Origin: a virus
Taxonomy: Duplodnaviria > Heunggongvirae > Uroviricota > Caudoviricetes
Reading direction: 5' to 3' (one strand)
DNA length: 13,814 nucleotides
Virus record (IMG/VR): IMGVR_UViG_641736163_000006
The notes beneath the pieces are model-generated. The model ran no database searches. It saw only the letters and a program-made list of their open reading frames with translations, and was not told the DNA's origin. The position numbers and the translations under genes are program-made. Shown piece by piece: positions 1-8,933 of the stretch; position 1 is the stretch's first letter; each line of letters starts with the position of its first letter.

Positions 1-2913
1 TTAATTTCGTTTCAGATTAGCCAACGCTCGCAAAGGCCGCCTTTCCAGCTCGAATGTATCAATGAATCGCAATGAGGATCTGTCATCGATGAGTCCCAAT
101 GAGTCAATCAGCGCTTTACGCTCAGGTTCTCTCCATTGCCACAGGGGATGTGTAACGACTGCGCGCCAGAGTTCTTTTCCATCCTGAATTTCGGTAAGGA
201 CCGGTAATGAGTGCTCTTTTGACAATTTGATGGTTCCAGGTCGTAACGCCTCGACGTCTTCCGCCAGCTCAAATGCCCTGTCTCGCCACCCGACCATTTC
301 AGGATGAATCCAGTCATTGTCGTTCAAGCCGCAGGCGAATTCAGGTACTACCATTGCCCGTAAGTAGGCTATGCCTAAACGCCAGTCCAGTAAGCCGTGG
401 TACCGGCGGTTGCCATAACGTTGTATGCACTTGTAACAAGCAGTTTGGCATTGTGCGGGATGATCATTACTCAAGAAATCGACCATCGGCCAGTCGCTCT
501 TATTGTTCAGGATTTCATCCAGTAATGTGGCTACCAATGGAGGGTCGCCAGCAACCGATGGTTCGGCAAGCCGTCGGCATAATCCTGAACCGTTGATCAA
601 CGCGTCGGCGATTTGCAATATCGGTTTGCCGAAGTGCAACCGGGGTTCAAGCGTTTCGAACTCGTCTGGCGATACATCCAGATGGAGCGCGGCTTTATGC
701 GTTAATATTTGAGTCGCGCTGATAGCCGCCGCTCGCGTAGGCAAATTCATATATTCGCCGTATCTGGCGACCATATTCAGATTAAGGCGTTCATCGAATT
801 GCATTAACTCCAGGTGAAGCGACTCCGTCTCTTTGCTTGATACAAGCCCAAAGCTTTTCTTCTCTCCGGTGCACCGCCATCTAAAATTATTGCGCAGTCC
901 AGCCCAGTTTGAATCAATCGCCTGACTTCCTTTAATCGGCGATCGGTAGGTAGCTAAAGGAATCGGCACCTTTTGATCGCTCGCCAAATCAACGGTAAAG
1001 CGCTCTCCTTCTTTCTCCCCATTAATGGGCCCATCGTTAAGACGCAAAATAGTAACGCCGCCGCGCCGTACGATAAAAGAACCGCAACTTTCTGAGGCTC
1101 CTGTATGCAATACGGTCGCCGTAGTTTTTAACGACATACGGGTAAAGCTGTCCATCTCGTCCTTTGGCTCAAAATCTGTGCGGAAAGCGGCAGGCGTGAT
1201 ATAGAGTTCGAATTCGTCCGGGCTGATCGGCGTATCGCAATCCTTGCAGTTAATGTCACTATCAGGTTGACTTTGCTCCAGCTTTGCCGAACCGCATGCC
1301 GGACAAATCGCGACATAGTGACTCGATTCCAGCCATGAACATACCGTCGAGAGATCTGATACACGGTTGTCCTGGACCTGGGGTTCCCGATAATTGCCGG
1401 TGAAGCCGATCACCTCATGCTTTTTCTTATCCTTGATCAATACCGAACCAGGAGCATACTCAAAAACCGCAAGGTCAAGATCGCGATCCATCGTTGACCA
1501 TTCGTATTCGGTTTGGTCATTCGCACCTTTTGTTTTGCGTAATCCCAGATAAAGGTTGCGTACCCGAGTCGGCATTCCATACATCGGCAATAGCCCTCGC
1601 TCAGCCAGAAAACAAGCAAGCCCTGTATTATCGTCAGGAGCGGAAGTTCCCAATCCCGCGATTTCTTCGATTATTTTTTCAGCGTTGATTGCGGAATAAA
1701 GGCGTTGGCGTTGACCGGGGGCGAACGTTGCGGCTTCGATAAAACGCTCACGTATATTCTGAGTCGCCTCCAGCGCGCTGTACAATAGTTTGGCCCAGTC
1801 AGCTTTATCATCATGATAGTAATCATGCGTTGAAACATATTCGCCATGAATATCAGGCGGTACGAGTTTATCGCCAGGGAATGTTATTTTGTTCTTACGG
1901 CATTCTTCACGCAGAAGATTAAATGCGCTTCTGAGCCAAATTTTCCGCAGAAGTCTTTTGGGTATATCATCATGATCGACCGCCAGGAAGGGCGGCGGCG
2001 GCGGATCGCCGGTGATCGCGTGAGGGTGTGCGAAATAGTAAGCATCATGAGTACGCCCGCGACAAAACGTGATAACGAAAGAAAATGCCTGGCCGCGTCG
2101 TCCGGCGCGACCGACGCGCTGCTGGTAATTAAATCGCTGGGGCGGCATGTTGGCCTGATAAACTGACTGAAGCGAACCGATATCAATACCGACTTCCATC
2201 GTTGTGGTAACGGCAAGCATATCGATTTCCGCATCCAGTTTTTCAAGTTCGCTCATCTTATCGACGAAAATCCCCTTGAATTTACGCAACCGCTCGGAAA
2301 AATCATCCGTTTGCCCGGTCAATTCTTCGACGTTCAACCGGAAACGTTTAACACCATCTCGTTCCCCGCGCACGATGCGTTTGCCAAGAAAATTGTCTTC
2401 CCATAGCTTTTCAACGACGCCGCTGGGTTCAATATTGAGCGGATTTACGCAACGGGTACAATGCTTAAACCCTAAATGTAAGTGAATTCGTCCGCAGTTG
2501 CTGCATTGCCAGTAATGATCGCCAGGTTTAGCGACCTTAAGAAACAATTTGCCGATACTAATTAATCCCGCCGTATGTTTCAGATCAGCAAACTGCTTTA
2601 AGATACTCGTCAGACCTTCCTGATAGAGGTTATCGCCGAATAAAACTCTGGCGACGCGCTTAACTTTCTCTTTGTCGACATTCGCTCCGACATGCCAGTC
2701 CCGGGTGCGGCTGGCGTCGAAATATTTATTTTCCTTAACGCGATAGACGCCGGAAAACACCCTCAGCCACGCATCGAGTTGCGGCATATCATCTTTACCA
2801 GCGATGCACGGATACGCCAGTCCAGTTTCTTCCAGCGCGAAAAAGATATTGGCGAAAATTACGTCGTCTATCAGTTCAAATTGATCATCGAATATTTTCG
2901 TTTTTATCTTCAT
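1..2913 (-). CDS. 5'-truncated SF2 helicase: C-terminal RecA-like domain plus long Zn-ribbon / DUF1998(MrfA)-like tail; defense-associated helicase remnant (DruE/MrfA-like, family not verified)
   Basis: 970-aa ORF with stop at 1-3. Helicase motif V (TTTMEVGIDIG) and motif VI (QRVGRAGRRGQ) lie about 235-275 aa from the Met. CxxC...CxxC clusters occur at WQCSNCGRIHLHLGFKHCTRC and CPACG...CKDC, and the tail has CQTACYKC...LDWRLG. No Walker A (GxxxxGK[ST]) or DExH motif anywhere, so the ATPase RecA1 domain is missing. The minus-strand frame stays open from 2913 up to 3099 across the IS1 junction, and there is no SD before the ATG at 2913. Confidence 0.6.
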   Translation of the reverse strand: MKIKTKIFDDQFELIDDVIFANIFFALEETGLAYPCIAGKDDMPQLDAWLRVFSGVYRVKENKYFDASRTRDWHVGANVDKEKVKRVARVLFGDNLYQEGLTSILKQFADLKHTAGLISIGKLFLKVAKPGDHYWQCSNCGRIHLHLGFKHCTRCVNPLNIEPSGVVEKLWEDNFLGKRIVRGERDGVKRFRLNVEELTGQTDDFSERLRKFKGIFVDKMSELEKLDAEIDMLAVTTTMEVGIDIGSLQSVYQANMPPQRFNYQQRVGRAGRRGQAFSFVITFCRGRTHDAYYFAHPHAITGDPPPPPFLAVDHDDIPKRLLRKIWLRSAFNLLREECRKNKITFPGDKLVPPDIHGEYVSTHDYYHDDKADWAKLLYSALEATQNIRERFIEAATFAPGQRQRLYSAINAEKIIEEIAGLGTSAPDDNTGLACFLAERGLLPMYGMPTRVRNLYLGLRKTKGANDQTEYEWSTMDRDLDLAVFEYAPGSVLIKDKKKHEVIGFTGNYREPQVQDNRVSDLSTVCSWLESSHYVAICPACGSAKLEQSQPDSDINCKDCDTPISPDEFELYITPAAFRTDFEPKDEMDSFTRMSLKTTATVLHTGASESCGSFIVRRGGVTILRLNDGPINGEKEGERFTVDLASDQKVPIPLATYRSPIKGSQAIDSNWAGLRNNFRWRCTGEKKSFGLVSSKETESLHLELMQFDERLNLNMVARYGEYMNLPTRAAAISATQILTHKAALHLDVSPDEFETLEPRLHFGKPILQIADALINGSGLCRRLAEPSVAGDPPLVATLLDEILNNKSDWPMVDFLSNDHPAQCQTACYKCIQRYGNRRYHGLLDWRLGIAYLRAMVVPEFACGLNDNDWIHPEMVGWRDRAFELAEDVEALRPGTIKLSKEHSLPVLTEIQDGKELWRAVVTHPLWQWREPERKALIDSLGLIDDRSSLRFIDTFELERRPLRALANLKRN

Positions 2914-3066
2914 TTTTTCAGAAGAAGGAAGTCTTTCACTGTATTTAATGATTTCATCTTCTTTAATGAAATTAGCATACCAAACAGTACTATCATCTTC
3001 TTCTGAATTAGGGTGATGCTGCCAACTTACTGATTTAGTGTATGATGGTGTTTTTGAGGTGCTCCA

Positions 3067-3342
3067 GTGGCTTCTGTTTCTATTAGCTGTCCCTCCTGTT
3101 CAGCTACTGACGGGGTGGTGCGTAACGGCAAAAGCACCGCCGGACATCAGCGCTATCTCTGCTCTCACTGCCGTAAAACATGGCAACTGCAGTTCACTTA
3201 CACCGCTTCTCAACCCGGTACGCACCAGAAAATCATTGATATGGCCATGAATGGCGTTGGATGCCGGGCAACTGCCCGCATTATGGGCGTTGGCCTCAAC
3301 ACGATTTTACGTCACTTAAAAAACTCAGGCCGCAGTCGGTAA
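3067..3342 (+). CDS. insA: IS1 InsA (transposition inhibitor / N-terminal part of InsAB' transposase)
   Basis: 91-aa product [22 protein letters not shown]...LKNSGRSR recognised as IS1 InsA; GTG start. Confidence 0.9.
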
Positions 3343-3764
3343 CCTCGCGCATACAGCCGGGCAGTGACGTCATCGTCTGCGCGGAAATGGACGAACAGTG
3401 GGGCTATGTCGGGGCTAAATCGCGCCAGCGCTGGCTGTTTTACGCGTATGACAGTCTCCGGAAGACGGTTGTTGCGCACGTATTCGGTGAACGCACTATG
3501 GCGACGCTGGGGCATCTTATGAGCCTGCTGTCACCCTTTGACGTGGTGATATGGATGACGGATGGCTGGCCGCTGTATGAATCCCGCCTGAAGGGAAAGC
3601 TGCACGTAATCAGCAAGCGATATACGCAGCGAATTGAGCGGCATAACCTGAATCTGAGGCAGCACCTGGCACGGCTGGGACGGAAGTCGCTGTCGTTCTC
3701 AAAATCGGTGGAGCTGCATGACAAAGTCATCGGGCATTATCTGAACATAAAACACTATCAATAA
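3261..3764 (+). CDS. insB: IS1 InsB reading frame (expressed as InsAB' fusion by -1 frameshift)
   Basis: 167-aa frame ending ...HYLNIKHYQ, overlapping the insA 3' end in the -1 frame, as in IS1. Confidence 0.9.
3318..3324 (+). promoter_or_regulatory. A6C slippery heptamer for programmed -1 ribosomal frameshift (insA to insB)
   Basis: AAAAAAC lies within the insA/insB overlap (sequence TTAAAAAACTC), the established IS1 frameshift site. Confidence 0.7.
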
Positions 3765-3779
3765 GTTGGAGTCATTACC

Positions 3780-5016
3780 TAAGGAGTTGATTGGCAAATT
3801 TCGTTTATTGCCGAAAAAATTAACCACAAAGGAAAAAGATGAATCCAAAAATGGACACGTTCATTTTTCTAACCCTAAACGAGCAGCCGACCATTTATTT
3901 AAGAATTTTGATCTGATACCAGAGTTTCGTATTATTGGCGACTTCCCGGTTGATAGTCACATTATCTCTGCGCTATGGATTAACATGGTCGGGCATAAAT
4001 TTGATGCCAGCTTAGATAACTGTTGCTATGGCGCGCGGCTAAAACGTATTCGTAATGATGAATTGTTTAGCAATGAGCAGGATAATCCATTCCATATCAG
4101 TGCTGTGGGTTCTTTTAGCTCCTACTTCCAGCCCTACCAAAAATGGCGTGGTGATGGCTTAAAAGCTATACGTGACGAACTGGAAAAAGATCACGATATT
4201 ATCGCCGCTTCACTGGATTTAAAAAGTTACTATCATTTTATTGATCCACTGGCTATAACTTCTGACGATCTCTGTGACGCGCTAAACGTAAAACTGACTG
4301 AGGATGAAAAAGCGTTTACTGAACAGTTAGCAATATTCTTAAAGCACTGGTCTGACGGCGCAGCAACGTTTGGAAAGAAAATAGCGTACAAAACACCAGT
4401 TATTAATGGTGGTCTGGTCATTGGATTGACGGCCAGTCGGATCATATCTAATATACTGCTACACCAGTGGGATAAATTAGTCATTGAGAAACTATCGCCG
4501 ATCCACTACGGTCGTTATGTCGATGATATGTTCCTCGTGATACGCGATACAGGTAAAATTACTAATAATCACGAATTTATGTTATTGCTGCAAGAGCGGC
4601 TTGGCAACGATTGCATTAGCCAGAAAAACGGGCAAGAACAGATATGGCAAATACAGCAGGGTGAGCAGTTTCAGGGTAAGACTACCATCCAGTTACAATC
4701 CGATAAGCAAAAACTTTTCGTGCTTCAGGGGCGGGCGGGAATAGACCTGCTCGACAGTATCGAAAAGGAGATCTACGAGCTTTCTAGTGAACACCGCTTG
4801 ATGCCTTCACCGGATCAACTGGAACACTCCACCGCGGCTAAAGTCCTTTCCGCTGCCGGTAGCGTGGGTGAAAATGCCGATACTCTGCGCCGTGCGGATG
4901 GATTAACCATCCGTCGTTTGGGCTGGTCACTGCAATTACGCTACGTTGAAACACTGGCGCGAGATCTGCCTCCAGGTGAATGGAAAGAACAGCGGGAAGA
5001 GTTTTATCAGTTTGCC
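3780..5016 (+). pseudogene. UG/Abi-type reverse transcriptase (DRT1-like), RT-domain fragment; 5' end removed at the IS1-A junction, 3' end interrupted by IS1-B
   Basis: RT motif A (IIAASLDLKSYYHFID), motif B-like (INGGLVIGLTASRIISNILL) and motif C (HYGRYVDDMFLV; YVDD at 4516-4527). The ORF-track start at 3766 is a TTG inside the IS1 end; the first native base is 3780 and no plausible native start follows. Confidence 0.75.
5008..5016 (+). repeat. Target-site duplication (left copy) of IS1 copy B: CAGTTTGCC
   Basis: Identical 9-mer directly flanks both ends of IS1-B (5008-5016 and 5785-5793). Confidence 0.85.
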
Positions 5017-5071
5017 GGTGATGCTGCCAACTTACTGATTTAGTGTATGATGGTGTTTTTGAGGTGCTCCA

Positions 5072-5347
5072 GTGGCTTCTGTTTCTATTAGCTGTCCCTC
5101 CTGTTCAGCTACTGACGGGGTGGTGCGTAACGGCAAAAGCACCGCCGGACATCAGCGCTATCTCTGCTCTCACTGCCGTAAAACATGGCAACTGCAGTTC
5201 ACTTACACCGCTTCTCAACCCGGTACGCACCAGAAAATCATTGATATGGCCATGAATGGCGTTGGATGCCGGGCAACTGCCCGCATTATGGGCGTTGGCC
5301 TCAACACGATTTTACGTCACTTAAAAAACTCAGGCCGCAGTCGGTAA
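5072..5347 (+). CDS. insA: IS1 InsA (copy B)
   Basis: Protein identical to copy A InsA. Confidence 0.9.
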
Positions 5348-5769
5348 CCTCGCGCATACAGCCGGGCAGTGACGTCATCGTCTGCGCGGAAATGGACGAA
5401 CAGTGGGGCTATGTCGGGGCTAAATCGCGCCAGCGCTGGCTGTTTTACGCGTATGACAGTCTCCGGAAGACGGTTGTTGCGCACGTATTCGGTGAACGCA
5501 CTATGGCGACGCTGGGGCATCTTATGAGCCTGCTGTCACCCTTTGACGTGGTGATATGGATGACGGATGGCTGGCCGCTGTATGAATCCCGCCTGAAGGG
5601 AAAGCTGCACGTAATCAGCAAGCGATATACGCAGCGAATTGAGCGGCATAACCTGAATCTGAGGCAGCACCTGGCACGGCTGGGACGGAAGTCGCTGTCG
5701 TTCTCAAAATCGGTGGAGCTGCATGACAAAGTCATCGGGCATTATCTGAACATAAAACACTATCAATAA
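5266..5769 (+). CDS. insB: IS1 InsB reading frame (copy B)
   Basis: Protein identical to copy A InsB. Confidence 0.9.
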
Positions 5770-5784
5770 GTTGGAGTCATTACC

Positions 5785-5793
5785 CAGTTTGCC
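5785..5793 (+). repeat. Target-site duplication (right copy) of IS1 copy B: CAGTTTGCC
   Basis: See the left copy at 5008-5016. Confidence 0.85.
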
Positions 5794-7566
5794 TACAACC
5801 ATATTCTTAGGGCCGATAATCTATTTGCACATTTTAGTTATCTGCCAAGGTTGCTTGGCTTTGCTATCAGTATGAATGAATGGCAGCACGCGGAAAAAAT
5901 TGTACTTAAAGCTTACGAATCCATCAATCTGCTGGCCTCGGTGATTACCTCAGGCAAGGAAGTGACTATAAATGGTTGCAAAACTCGAGCAGTAAATGAT
6001 CTTTGGCGTTGTATAAAAGGCACCTTAAGCTGGCTATTTGTTGATGCAGCAACACGATATTACAATCCTGATAAATTATTTCTTGATAAACATTCCAAGA
6101 AAGAAGAGTGTCTTGCGGATACATTTTTTAATCATATTTCACAAAGCCTGACAAACCTAAAGGATTTACTGGATCTTCGTTTTGATTCAGCAGACTTTTA
6201 TTTAAAAGTGCCATTGGTAGCTCGGGCTGACTTAGCAAAAGAACCTTATAAACAGATCGTAAAGAGTCAGTCCGCAGAAAAACTTGTTAATCAGCGTGAT
6301 AGTAAAAAAGAAGCTAAAATACTGAAATTAATGAGCACTTCATCGCTTATTGATATTGATGTTATTAAGCTATTTTTGAAATCAACCAAGAATACCCGAC
6401 TGGAAAAAGTGGCTAAAGGAAATCGTAAGAATGAGAGTTACTTACCTTACATTTTCCCTACACGTCCTTTAACACCCGCTGAAATATCTGAACTGGCCCC
6501 CGAATGTGTTGGATTACCCTCCAGATACGACAAAAACTCAGATGGAAGGCCGTCCACTATTTGGGCCAAATATACGCAAGCATTACGTGGAGTATGGATC
6601 AAACCGACATTGCTGGCATCGGAGCAAGACTCAGACGAAGCGACAAAAACAGTTCGGCCTAAGAAATTCATTCATATTGGTACAGACAGGAAACATAAAA
6701 TTGTCGTTGCGCTAACCAGCATCAAAACCGATGAGGACGACTGGGCTAAAATGGCCTGTAACAAATCTAACCTGTCCCGTTCAAGGTATCAGCGGATTTC
6801 TGAACTGGTTAATGCAACATTGAAACTGTCGCCTAAACCCGATTATGTTTTATTCCCTGAGCTTTCAATTCCGTTACGTTGGGTTAACAGTATTGCCGAT
6901 CGTTTGAGTTCGGCGGGTATCAGTCTGATTGCGGGGACGGAATACCGCCACTTTGACGATAATCAACTGAAGAGTGAAGCAGTGCTTGTCCTGTCAGATA
7001 ACCGACTCGGCTATCCGGCGAGTGTCAAAATATGGCAACCCAAGCTGGAACCCGCTGTAGGTGAAGATGAGGCATTGTTTTCAACGTTTGGTAAGTCCTG
7101 GGCATTTTCAACGCTTAATCCGAAACATCGTAAACCTGTATATATTCATCACGGCGTCAATTTTGGCGTTATGATTTGCTCTGAACTCCAGAACAGCAAA
7201 GCAAGGATCCGGTTTCAGGGCGCGGTCGACGCATTGATGGTATTGAGCTGGAATAAAGATCTGGATACGTTTGCATCGTTGATTGAATCAGCAGCGCTGG
7301 ATGTTCATGCCTATACCATCTTGGTGAATAACCGAAAATATGGCGACAGCCGGGTACGTTCTCCGGCAAAAGAATCCTTTATGCGCGATATTGCCCGCGT
7401 GAAGGGCGGTGATAATGACTTTGTGGTTGCTGCAACGCTGGATATCGATGCGTTAAGGGCATTCCAGAGCAGGGCAAAACGCTGGTCTAAAGATGGCGAT
7501 AAATTCAAGCCATTGCCTGAAGGATTCCAGTTGGCAAAGAATCGTAAAAAACTACCGCCAAAATAA
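5785..7566 (+). pseudogene. 3' portion of the same RT gene: helical linker plus C-terminal nitrilase-like (C-N hydrolase) domain
   Basis: Frame continues from the 3780-5016 fragment once IS1-B and one duplication copy (777 bp, a multiple of 3) are removed. Nitrilase-like triad: E in YVLFPELSIP (6859-6861), K in SVKIWQPKLEP, C in GVNFGVMICSELQ (7177-7179). Stop at 7564-7566. Confidence 0.65.
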
Positions 7567-7692
7567 GAAACTGATTTCGTTATTATAGATCAGGGTATTT
7601 TTGCGTGAGAGGCCGGAAAACAGGATGTCGCCCCTGTGTAAGTTCACAGAGATATTGCAATTGCCTCCGGATAAGTAAGGGGAGATTGCACT

Positions 7693-8739
7693 ATGCAAAT
7701 GCAGCATCTGATGGTTGGCTATCCTAAGTACTACCAAACGGCCGATTATGCGTTGAGGCTTTCAGTGATGGCTGATATAGCAACAATGAGAATGAAGGCT
7801 CTGCACTTCTGGGATAAACACGGTATTTCTGCAGCTTCTGAAGCCTTTGGCGTGTCCTGCCGCACGCTTTACTGGTGGCGTCAGTTACTGAACAAGGAAG
7901 GACCTGAGGGGCTAATCCCGCACAGTAAGGCACCTCTGGTGCGACGAAAAAAACACTGGCATCCCGATGTGCTGAAAGAGATTCGACGCCTCAGGACAGA
8001 GCTGCCGAACCTCGGTAAAGAGCAGATTTTTGTTCGCCTGAAGCCCTGGTGCGAACAGCGCTATCTGGCCTGTCCGAGTGTTTCCACCATCGGCAGAATG
8101 ATCGCTGCCGCACATGATAAAATGCGGATGATACCTGTGCGTCTGGGATCGCGGGGGAAGGCACTGCTTGTCAAAAAGCGGTCTGCCAAACCCCGCAGGC
8201 CAAAGCACTCCCGCCCGGTAAAGACAGGTGAGCTCATTGGGATGGACGCCATTGAGCTCAGAATGGGCGAACTGCGTCGCTATGTCATCACCATGATCGA
8301 CGAATGCAGCAATTACGCGCTGGCGCTGGCTGTGCCGTCACTCAACAGTGATATCGTCAATCACTTCTTCAGCCGCGCAGCCCGGTTGTTCCCGGTCGGT
8401 ATCAGCCAGATAATCACAGATAATGGAAAAGAGTTCCTGGGAAACTTCGACAAAACGCTGCAGGAAGCCGCTATCAAACACCTCTGGACCTATCCCTACA
8501 CGCCAAAAATGAACGCTATCTGTGAACGTTTTAACCGGACGTTAAGAGAGCAGTTTATTGAATTTAATGAGATTTTACTCTTTGAAGATCTGGCGCTATT
8601 TAACCAGAAGCTGGCGGAATATCTGGTGCTGTATAACAGCAAAAGACCCCACAAGGCGCTCGCACTAATGACGCCCGTGGAATATATTTTAAAAGAGAAT
8701 AAAAATTGCAATATGTGGTGGACCCATACATCTCCTTGA
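7693..8739 (+). CDS. DDE-type transposase with N-terminal HTH and integrase-core (rve-like) domain; IS481-family-like
   Basis: 348-aa ORF with SD GGGGAG 8 nt upstream. Single frame carrying an HTH (GVSCRTLYWWRQ) and DDE-like signatures (MIDECS ... ITDNGKEF ... ICERFNRTLREQ), an architecture typical of IS481-family transposases. Element ends not identified. Confidence 0.75.
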   Translation: MQMQHLMVGYPKYYQTADYALRLSVMADIATMRMKALHFWDKHGISAASEAFGVSCRTLYWWRQLLNKEGPEGLIPHSKAPLVRRKKHWHPDVLKEIRRLRTELPNLGKEQIFVRLKPWCEQRYLACPSVSTIGRMIAAAHDKMRMIPVRLGSRGKALLVKKRSAKPRRPKHSRPVKTGELIGMDAIELRMGELRRYVITMIDECSNYALALAVPSLNSDIVNHFFSRAARLFPVGISQIITDNGKEFLGNFDKTLQEAAIKHLWTYPYTPKMNAICERFNRTLREQFIEFNEILLFEDLALFNQKLAEYLVLYNSKRPHKALALMTPVEYILKENKNCNMWWTHTSP

Positions 8740-8793
8740 CCTTTTGGTCCGTAAGAGGCTAATCTCTATGTGTCGCATAGATATGGCCTCAGA

Positions 8794-8879
8794 TTAACAT
8801 TAAGCGTCTTGCAGGACGCGTAATGTTAACTGGGGCTTTTCTCTATCTGCCTTTTGGTGTTCATGCCTGAGGCAGATAG
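8794..8879 (+). repeat. Two adjacent strong inverted repeats (hairpins) of unknown function
   Basis: Hairpin 1 at 8794-8829: TTAACATTAAGCGTC / loop TTGCAG / GACGCGTAATGTTAA, a 15-bp stem with one mismatch. Hairpin 2 at 8843-8879: CTATCTGCCT / 17-nt loop / AGGCAGATAG, a 10-bp stem. Confidence 0.5.
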
Positions 8880-8933
8880 CCTCAAGCACCCGCAGCAATT
8901 CTACTTAACTCCCGTCACCTCGCCAATATAAAA

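Follow-up and report, generated by a model that had tools for sequence, protein, structure and literature searches.

A probable pseudogene of a UG5-large reverse transcriptase-nitrilase, truncated at one IS1 copy and split by another, beside a Druantia type II remnant

The window, that is the whole DNA stretch of 13,814 nucleotides analysed here, carries the remains of a reverse transcriptase (RT)-nitrilase gene between a truncated Druantia helicase gene and an insertion sequence of the IS481 family. The features of this part of the window are:

1-3011, minus strand: druE', the C-terminal half of the Druantia type II DruE helicase gene (PADLOC DruE2 PDLC00014)
3012-3779, plus strand: IS1-A, 768 bp, with 23-bp terminal inverted repeats and without target-site duplication
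3780-5016, plus strand: RT-nitrilase fragment 1, containing the palm and fingers of the RT; it corresponds to residues 69-480 in the intact protein of 1069 aa
5008-5016, no strand: left copy of the 9-bp target-site duplication of IS1-B, CAGTTTGCC
5017-5784, plus strand: IS1-B, 768 bp, inserted at about codon 480 of the RT-nitrilase gene
5785-5793, no strand: right copy of the 9-bp target-site duplication of IS1-B, CAGTTTGCC
5794-7566, plus strand: RT-nitrilase fragment 2 (helical middle and predicted C-terminal nitrilase domain), stop codon at 7564-7566
7567-7634, plus strand: native 3' flank of the RT-nitrilase gene, about 70 nt; the megablast match to E. coli alleles ends at about 7636
7635-8739, plus strand: IS481-family insertion sequence, 1105 bp, encoding a 348-aa transposase; right border of the remnant

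As they stand, the two open reading frames of the RT-nitrilase occupy 3766-5043 (425 aa) and 5851-7566 (571 aa), and residues 1-68 of the protein are missing. Gene callers left both unnamed and no Pfam hit is on record for them. In-silico excision of 5017-5793, which removes IS1-B together with one copy of CAGTTTGCC, joined 3780-5016 to 5794-7566, and the resulting frame stays open over 1002 codons as far as the stop codon at 7564-7566. An earlier note on this DNA had proposed a rejoined frame of about this length, and the proposal proved right to the base; a run of 1002 codons would lack a stop by chance with a probability of about (61/64)^1002, or roughly 1e-21. The RT motifs that it had placed in fragment 1 were likewise found at their positions, motif A (ASLDLKSYY) at 4207-4233, motif B (LVIGLTASR) at 4414-4440 and motif C (YVDD) at 4516-4527, as was the Glu/Lys/Cys triad of fragment 2, with the Glu of FPE at 6859-6861, KIWQPK at 7027-7044 and the Cys of MICSE at 7177-7179. 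We could further single out the second lysine of KIWQPK (7042-7044), the one that is invariant among distant relatives. The candidate catalytic residues of fragment 2 are thus Glu 6859-6861, Lys 7042-7044, Glu 7063-7065 and Cys 7177-7179, with Glu 7183-7185 beside the cysteine, and a conserved C-terminal tail, FKPLPEGF, lies at 7504-7527.

The reconstructed protein matched the PADLOC profile RT_UG5-nitrilase (PDLC03780) with an E-value of 2.5e-289 and 961 bits over profile positions 77-901 of 907; an intact E. coli relative, described below, scored 1034 bits over positions 9-901. Both fragments were also recognised individually, fragment 1 at profile positions 77-428 of 907 (E 5e-130) and fragment 2 at positions 449-901 of 907 (E 1e-145), the latter in addition by the profile RTasNitrilase (E 6e-44). 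Drt1a was the next PADLOC model outside UG5, with 88-91 bits over partial stretches. Retron-type models gave 29-33 bits, among them NCBIfam retron_St85 with 33 bits against a cut-off of 235. The YVDD motif is invariant across the family (Y314, V315, D316 and D317 of sequence P0001) and aligned to the YxDD of DRT1, of a retron RT and of Drt3a. The clade of the window copy is gammaproteobacterial and strongly conserved, the E. coli protein sharing 70-72% identity with those of Marinobacter and Vibrio. An Rfam search detected no RNA family within 3780-7634, its sole hit in the window being sok at 8725-8891. Taken together with the lesions described below, the locus is very probably a pseudogene of a single-gene anti-phage RT-nitrilase of the UG5-large type (DRT11/DRT5L), beheaded at IS1-A and split by IS1-B. 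UG5-large RT-nitrilases as such are already known as defence proteins.

The reading of the earlier note as a UG/Abi RT with a C-terminal nitrilase was therefore upheld by the RT_UG5-nitrilase and RTasNitrilase profiles, and an RT of the retron, group II intron or DGR kind, which would have spoken against it, did not emerge, retron-type models remaining at 29-33 bits versus 961 bits for UG5. Its attribution to class 1 has to be corrected: class 1 UG/Abi enzymes carry HEAT-like (alpha-Rep) repeats C-terminally of the RT, and the nitrilase-linked ones form class 3 (Mestre et al. 2022, PMC9226505). The Pfam comparison that the note had suggested, with RVT_1 and CN_hydrolase, was unworkable in that form since the full 1002-aa protein returned neither domain at E<=1; the isolated nitrilase domain stayed below the threshold of CN_hydrolase (E 0.066, 13 bits against a cut-off of 23.2 bits). 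The domain calls consequently rest on family-specific and custom profiles, and PADLOC and custom profiles were used for domain detection in place of Pfam.

For the C-terminal domain, the reconstructed protein matched RTasNitrilase with an E-value of 2e-43. In an alignment of 24 sequences with 23-67% identity, E69, K130, E137 and C175 were invariant and E177 nearly so. A deep profile of the family (A3) matched the nitrilase of DRT1 (PDB 9yfd) at E 2e-18, with the family cysteine aligned to C1116 of DRT1, the mutation of which abolishes defence (PMC13275509). The same profile matched the glutaminase (CN-hydrolase) domain of the NAD+ synthetase 5kha at E 5.6e-5. The tail, FKP.P.GF, was invariant as well and aligned to the extreme C-terminus of DRT1. 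From these alignments, the UG5-large family is predicted to possess a C-terminal nitrilase domain with a Glu-Lys-Glu-Cys set of residues. AlphaFold2 models were poor, with a mean pLDDT of 45 for the full-length E. coli relative and of 40 for the window nitrilase domain, their alignments being shallow and made up of too similar sequences; the nitrilase fold is a prediction from profile matches.

An uninterrupted gene in related genomes, for which the earlier note had called, was found in E. coli and is contiguous at the IS1-B site. It encodes 1069 aa, is collinear with the reconstructed frame, shares 94.8% amino acid identity with it and occurs in 260 of 5,426 complete E. coli genomes. In E. 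coli 7/2, fragments 1 and 2 map to adjoining bases (297415-298651 and 295574-297414 of the record), and the excision hence reproduces a real uninterrupted allele. Fragment 1 could be aligned to the E. coli allele from end to end at 94.0% nucleotide identity, and the window copy begins at residue 69 of the intact E. coli protein. The dN/dS ratio against the E. coli allele was 0.093, and 3 of 480 family-invariant residues were changed in the window copy. As sampled, the 90% cluster of the E. coli protein held no allele above about 95% identity to the window copy. RefSeq labels the intact allele only as 'RNA-directed DNA polymerase' or 'hypothetical protein'. In E. coli 7/2 it lies beside ash and integrase remnants at a tRNA-Thr gene, and no downstream transmembrane (TM) gene was found at this locus; in the window, the native 3' flank of about 70 nt ahead of the IS481-family element holds none either.

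The two IS1 copies have the same orientation and no mismatch in 768 positions. Both correspond to IS1 (InsA/InsAB') in length, in their 23-bp terminal inverted repeats and in the Pfam domains of their product (DDE_Tnp_IS1 and Zn_ribbon_InsA), and the 9-bp duplication accompanies IS1-B only, which is flanked by a perfect direct repeat of CAGTTTGCC. The flanks of IS1-A, CTGAATTAG and TAAGGAGTT, differ, so that no target duplication exists there. A missing duplication is expected after an IS1-mediated adjacent deletion or after recombination between IS1 copies. Lost at the IS1-A junction are the promoter, the start codon and the first 68 codons of the RT-nitrilase gene, the latter highly conserved and nearly invariant across the family. 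On its other side, druE' matched DruE2 (PDLC00014; E=0) at profile positions 969-1925 of 1928, the N-terminal codons, about 960 in number, being cut away at the same junction. We considered whether the 970-aa druE open reading frame might be a complete 'split DruE', given that a 972-aa Photorhabdus homologue exists, and rejected this: from its ATG at 2913 the frame stays open up to the IS1-A junction (NSEEDDSTVWYANFIKEDEIIKYSERLPSSEKM), and this extension of 32 codons is homologous to an internal part of P0136, a longer DruE.

The gene thus bears two lesions. A rearrangement at IS1-A, by adjacent deletion or IS1-IS1 recombination, very probably came first and removed the RT promoter, start codon and first 68 codons along with the 5' half of the divergently oriented druE and everything between both genes. 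IS1-B then entered near codon 480 by simple insertion with its 9-bp duplication. The statement of the earlier note that the gene was inactivated by IS1 hence stands as far as IS1-B is concerned; this insertion was not the sole event, the rearrangement at IS1-A having taken the 68 codons and what lay upstream of them. The druE remnant had no DNA match in the 5,426 complete E. coli genomes, in near or distant mode, and its matches among plasmids reached at most 53% amino acid identity. The nearest DruE homologue (P0135) could not be placed on any contig, and P0136 lies on a contig of 5 kb. With the ancestral druE context found neither in genomes nor in plasmids nor on homologue contigs, the content of the deletion can only be deduced.

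As judged from its sequence, the window RT-nitrilase has probably lost its function. The dN/dS ratio, the few changes at invariant residues and the identity of the two IS1 copies together suggest that inactivation was recent. By itself, the window locus represents ordinary genome decay. It adds another case of IS1-driven decay of a defence island, a non-coli Escherichia genome having lost both its UG5-large RT-nitrilase and its Druantia type II system at the same IS1 junction.

Three other explanations deserve consideration. The earlier note had placed the gene in DRT type 1 (UG1), with which it does share the succession of RT, helical region and nitrilase. The Drt1a profile and the 9yfd sequence are also its closest matches outside UG5, and UG1 is nested within the UG5 radiation in the nitrilase phylogeny (PMC13436386). 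We nevertheless consider this assignment very improbable, since Drt1a gave just 91 bits over part of the protein versus 961 bits end to end for RT_UG5-nitrilase, since intact relatives are 1064-1073 aa long, not 1200-1300 aa as in UG1, with DRT1 itself at 1229 aa, and since the family profile aligns to just parts of 9yfd. PADLOC thus favours UG5-large over DRT1.

It is similarly hard to believe that the frames 3766-5043 and 5851-7566 still cooperate as a split system resembling UG5-small, in which RT and nitrilase naturally occupy separate open reading frames (PMC9226505). Both window frames have remained open with YVDD and the Glu-Lys-Cys residues kept, and dN/dS is low; this ratio, however, reflects the history before the insertions and not present function. 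The first 68 near-invariant residues, the native promoter and the start codon are all gone, and the break falls inside an invariant block (EEFYQF|A.NHILRADNLF) at profile positions of about 428-449, not at the boundary of UG5-small, where the RT model spans 631 positions. An assembly artefact, finally, could be suspected from the identical 768-bp repeats, a classic source of misassembly, and from an IS1-A without target duplication. Against it, GCA_000155105.1 and GCA_022833075.1, assembled independently of each other, agree in the order of these genes and in their truncated products, which are identical; the duplication at IS1-B is a perfect 9 bp, and the E. coli allele runs on uninterrupted at precisely this point, so that an artefact appears extremely improbable. 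A third assembly has the truncated druE product as well, on a 3.8-kb contig that ends before the IS1 junctions.

The pseudogene of a UG5-large system therefore remains our preferred reading, and it can be set beside the systems known so far. DRT11 of Sinorhizobium meliloti RMO17 (WP_040120558.1) is a UG5-large system, for which the structural paper on DRT1 uses the name 'DRT5L' (Neville et al. 2026). As far as can be compared from its description, DRT11 shares with the gene studied here the layout of one protein chain, about 1000-1070 aa long, that begins with the RT (YVDD) and ends with the nitrilase (Lys...Cys-x-Glu). Further common traits of UG5-large are the absence of a neighbouring TM gene and of an ncRNA and the end-to-end match to the PADLOC UG5-nitrilase profile. 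Unlike a working UG5-large gene, the window copy is a pseudogene, lacking 68 N-terminal codons and split by IS1. A downstream TM protein is optional in UG5-large, with 31 of 299 members having one (Mestre et al., PMC9226505), and such a partner does not define the group since DRT11 functions without it. DRT type 1 (UG1, Klebsiella pneumoniae, PDB 9YFD) has in common the class 3 architecture, the aligned nitrilase cysteine and a tail ending in FK, but it belongs to a separate RT family and is about 160 aa longer. Similarity to UG5-small was seen in the RT, which matched the RT_UG5_small profile at E 2e-35, and in the nitrilase domain (RTasNitrilase); the split in the window, in contrast, is an IS1 insertion within a conserved block and no evolved gene boundary. 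The RT-nitrilase + 1TM system of E. coli 101, located in a P4-like satellite (Rousset et al. 2022, PMC9122126), likewise combines, by its description, an RT of unknown group 5 with a C-terminal nitrilase in an E. coli mobile element; the ash and integrase remnants at tRNA-Thr in E. coli 7/2, whose allele is the E. coli one nearest to the window copy, are a comparable setting. It differs by its TM gene, which is absent after the RT both in the window and in E. coli 7/2.

Experimental knowledge of the mechanism comes from relatives (PMC13275509, PMC13436386), and for the UG5-large gene the following would hold by analogy. The intact polypeptide of about 1070 aa would comprise the N-terminal RT with YVDD, a helical middle and the C-terminal domain of the nitrilase superfamily with its Glu-Lys-Glu-Cys residues. 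The RT would make short DNA without a template in a protein-primed reaction, leading to a covalent DNA adduct as published for class 3 relatives. If the course of events resembled that of DRT1, this adduct would give rise to a dormant oligomer or filament with the nitrilase kept closed by the conserved C-terminal tail, and phage infection would free the nitrilase and thereby abort the infection. Filament and C-terminal lid have been demonstrated in DRT1 only, and the priming serine of DRT1, S402, was reported to be non-conserved in other class 3 families (PMC13275509); our profile alignment to 9yfd spans residues 202-373 and 1006-1226 only, with the S402 region outside the aligned part. For a UG5-large system, YVDD and the nitrilase cysteine were both found to be required, defence was abortive-infection-like, and neither a TM partner nor an ncRNA was involved (PMC13436386).

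Another observation concerned the genomic surroundings of the family. Of 64 species-level relatives, 23 have the RT-nitrilase at the 3' end of a type I restriction-modification (R-M) operon, in the same orientation as the operon and at a distance of -4 to 55 nt from the preceding gene. Between hsdS and the RT lies a swappable defence cassette: Kiwa, PDC-M59A with Fic, PDC-S06 or an SMC-like ATPase. A Salmonella locus with the order hsdRMS-Kiwa-RT is one such operon. The position is also kept beside an unrelated, EcoEI-like type I lineage and in Flavobacterium, where the RT is merely 26-27% identical. We came across no reference to this linkage in the two main papers on UG5.

It is conceivable, though we regard it as rather unlikely, that the function of UG5-large RT-nitrilases is tied to type I restriction, the solo lineage of E. 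coli and the window then being secondary and uncoupled. The RT-nitrilase could, for example, be a back-up firing once restriction has been overcome or inhibited. The conservation of the clade, with about 70% identity across distant Proteobacteria, and the recurrent placement in R-M operons could together reveal how cells deploy class 3 DRTs and what triggers them. Both are family-level observations that could merit a dedicated study, and the window itself matters little beyond its annotation.

The IS481-family element at the right border of the remnant carries the Pfam domains rve, rve_3, HTH_32 and LZ_Tnp_IS481 and has an inverted twin, 99.8% identical, at a distance of 8.2 kb, just outside the window.

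The RT-nitrilase gene belongs to UG5-large, a class 3 UG/Abi defence family that has been described before; this copy is a pseudogene, inactivated twice, and lies in a defence island scrambled by insertion sequences. As a locus it is ordinary; real novelty lies only in the reading that such genes are coupled to type I restriction-modification (R-M) operons, which concerns the family rather than this copy.

Features of the interrupted gene and its borders (window coordinates)
1-3011, minus strand: druE', C-terminal half of Druantia type II DruE (PADLOC DruE2 profile 969-1925 of 1928)
3012-3779: IS1-A, 768 bp, same orientation as IS1-B
4516-4527: YVDD
5017-5784: IS1-B, 768 bp, same orientation as IS1-A
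6859-6861: FPE glutamate, Glu69, invariant
7027-7044: KIWQPK
7042-7044: Lys130, second lysine of KIWQPK, invariant
7063-7065: Glu137, invariant
7177-7179: MICSE cysteine, Cys175, invariant
7183-7185: Glu177, nearly invariant
7635-8739: IS481-family element, 1105 bp, right border of the remnant, about 70 nt past the stop codon

The two IS1 copies differed at 0 of 768 positions, and on either side of IS1-B (5008-5016 and 5785-5793) stands the same 9-bp sequence, CAGTTTGCC, as a perfect direct repeat. Fusion of 3780-5016 to 5794-7566 gave a single open frame of 1002 codons with its stop at 7564-7566, the length expected in the earlier note, whose positions for YVDD, the FPE glutamate, KIWQPK and the MICSE cysteine were all exact. 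The uninterrupted allele, which it had proposed to seek in related genomes, is present in 260 of 5,426 complete E. coli genomes. Excision yields a real allele, since the two fragments lie there in a single gene with no base between them (92-94% nucleotide identity). In strain 7/2 this is a 1069-aa CDS, WP_001521910.1, annotated 'RNA-directed DNA polymerase'. The observation of a split gene is confirmed.

A Pfam search of the reconstructed protein matched nothing meaningful, RVT_1 and CN_hydrolase both being absent at E<=1, so that this check, proposed in the earlier note, would have resembled a refutation. The defence-specific profiles are unambiguous in the family they predict: PADLOC RT_UG5-nitrilase (PDLC03780) matched residues 2-1001 over profile positions 77-901 of 907 (E 2.5e-289, 961 bits), RTasNitrilase matched residues 723-991 (2e-43) and RT_UG5_small the RT part (2e-35). 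The intact E. coli protein covered positions 9-901 of RT_UG5-nitrilase with 1034 bits. The NCBIfam retron and DRT2-4 models all remained far under their cut-offs. The proposed fusion of a UG/Abi RT with a nitrilase was thus borne out, whereas its placement in UG1/DRT1 is rejected: Drt1a reached just 91 bits against the 961 of RT_UG5-nitrilase, and the family is UG5-large. Class 1 does not apply either, since the nitrilase-linked groups UG1, UG5, UG29 and UG6 form class 3 and HEAT-like repeats mark the class 1 group (Mestre et al. 2022, PMC9226505). The earlier interpretation was therefore partly supported.

In an alignment of the C-terminal domain from 24 relatives (A3; 23-67% identity), only 19 columns were invariant; these include Glu69, Lys130, Glu137 and Cys175, with Glu177 nearly so. 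The spacing of the lysine, the glutamate seven residues further on and the cysteine agrees with the Glu-Lys-Glu-Cys tetrad of nitrilase-superfamily amidases. The A3 profile matched the DRT1 nitrilase domain (PDB 9yfd) with E 2e-18 and the CN-hydrolase glutaminase domain of NAD+ synthetase (5kha) with 5.6e-5, PELS and LICxE being aligned. Pfam CN_hydrolase gave E 0.066 on the window nitrilase domain and passed E<=1 in 8 of the 24 relatives (best 6.9e-6). Two AlphaFold2 models were unusably poor (pLDDT 40 and 45), so that support for the predicted nitrilase fold comes entirely from sequence profiles. The residue aligned to the family cysteine is C1116 of DRT1, mutation of which abolishes defence (PMC13275509).

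DRT1, DRT5S and DRT5L were purified by Neville et al. 2026 (PMC13275509). In DRT1, adducts drive the assembly of tetramers and filaments, domain-swapped conserved C-termini shut the nitrilase active site in the filament, and activation then comes from phage factors, T4 Dda among them, with abortive infection as the outcome; the priming residue S402 is not conserved outside UG1 (PMC13275509). The window family resembles DRT1 in that its invariant C-terminal tail, FKP.P.GF, aligns with the C-terminal end of DRT1, and this would be compatible with the same lid mechanism. DRT11, a UG5-large system protecting S. meliloti, requires YVDD and the nitrilase cysteine, works without a TM partner and shows no ncRNA (Sanchez-Nieto et al. 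2026, PMC13436386).

The gene carries two lesions. Inactivation by IS1, as originally proposed, holds for IS1-B, a simple insertion with its 9-bp repeat at about codon 480, within the invariant block EEFYQF/A.NHIL, but this is not the sole lesion. Right of IS1-A, the first RT codon left corresponds to residue 69 of the intact protein of E. coli; the missing N-terminus, which the earlier note had wished to size, amounts to 68 residues, nearly invariant across the family, and neither promoter nor start codon remains. No target duplication accompanies IS1-A, which lies between CTGAATTAG and TAAGGAGTT. On its other side the frame of druE' is open right up to the element, and the end codons are homologous to the interior of a longer DruE. 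Since the duplication is absent and both flanking genes are cut, IS1-A marks a deletion or IS1-IS1 recombination in which the two divergently oriented genes, both of them for defence, lost their 5' parts and the DNA between them disappeared, presumably druM, druF and druG. The druE' DNA found neither near nor distant match in the 5,426 complete E. coli genomes. Loss of the RT-nitrilase gene looks recent, because comparison with the E. coli allele gives a dN/dS of 0.093 (dN 0.025, dS 0.26), only 3 of 480 family-invariant residues are changed and the IS1 copies are identical.

Read in reverse complement, the window is a stretch of scaffold CH991859.1 (GCA_000155105.1), probably from E. albertii TW07627, and GCA_022833075.1 shows the same order. 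The host is a non-coli Escherichia, since its core gene yccA shares only 89% identity with that of E. coli. A second, inverted copy of the IS481-family element, 99.8% identical, lies 8.2 kb away (13480-14584 of L090, a locus extending beyond the window), past druE' and the vsr gene that follows it just outside the window (L090 13002-13409). Beyond this second copy, the E. coli island resumes exactly where window homology ends (L001 12073-12848, 81% identity), which indicates that the 8.2-kb RT/IS1/druE'/vsr segment was inverted between the two IS481 copies. A 294-aa Integrase_1/Phage_int_SAM_2 integrase ends both this island (L090 16579-17463) and a Salmonella hsdRMS-Kiwa-RT island (L008 9061-9945), at 76% nucleotide identity, and suggests a common kind of integrative element carrying these defence genes.

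By sequence comparison, the clade is conserved from E. coli to Burkholderia to a degree unusual for a defence gene: Marinobacter, Vibrio, Alteromonas and Burkholderia have proteins at 70-72% identity and of constant length (1064-1073 aa), and mean column identity in family alignment A1 (P0001 and 14 relatives, 15 sequences) is 81%. Tn7-like transposons carry several of the copies (TnsC/D/E in L011, TniQ/TniB in L018 and L027). Among 64 GTDB species-representative loci with sufficient upstream sequence, a type I methylase gene precedes the RT in the same orientation in 23; there the RT is the last gene of an hsdR-hsdM-hsdS operon and follows the preceding gene at a distance of -4 to 55 nt.

Related loci with R-M linkage (RT start at about 10001; 5001 in L008, L011 and L012)
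L008, L011, L012, L015-L017, L020-L022, L024, L026, L033, L037, L038
L046, L048, L050, L052, L058, L060-L062, L067, L080-L082

In the loci of Salmonella, Yersinia and Marinobacter, hsdR-hsdM-hsdS is followed by two variable genes and, after 5-12 nt, by the RT. The hsdS-RT interval holds KwaA and KwaB (Kiwa), PDC-M59A and Fic, a PDC-S06 ATPase or an SMC-like ATPase, or is empty. Shewanella and Acinetobacter have an unrelated EcoEI-like type I system at the same position, and Flavobacterium keeps the arrangement although RT identity is only 26-27%. E. coli and Serratia, the branch nearest the window, show no R-M linkage and have divergent AbiEi/AbiEii upstream. The linkage is absent from the text of both main UG5 papers, and we regard the putative coupling of UG5-large RT-nitrilases to type I R-M operons as a lead.

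A Rac-like prophage occupies the opposite side of the window, with a cI-like repressor, YdaT, DUF977, a SIR2_2 protein and hok/sok.

Features of the prophage side (window coordinates)
8725-8891, minus strand: full-length sok antitoxin RNA (Rfam RF01794, 108 bits)
9094-10125, minus strand: SIR2_2-domain protein, 343 aa, between DUF977 and hok/sok
10494-13814: early region of a Rac/Qin-like lambdoid prophage
12701-13108: cI/DicA-like HTH repressor

The early region shares 95% identity with prophages from ETEC strains of pigs and encodes DUF977, a 339-aa replication-region ORF, a YdaT-family protein, a Cro-like ORF and the repressor. The hok/sok module was struck by IS481: sok adjoins the end of the element, and related prophages (e.g. 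L002) have the hok gene where the window has IS481. Apparently the toxin gene was displaced or destroyed and sok retained. The SIR2_2 protein, which recurs unchanged in numerous prophages of E. coli (145 index blocks), gave weak PADLOC matches to Aga_SIR2 and PDC-S21 and is a candidate prophage-borne defence gene.
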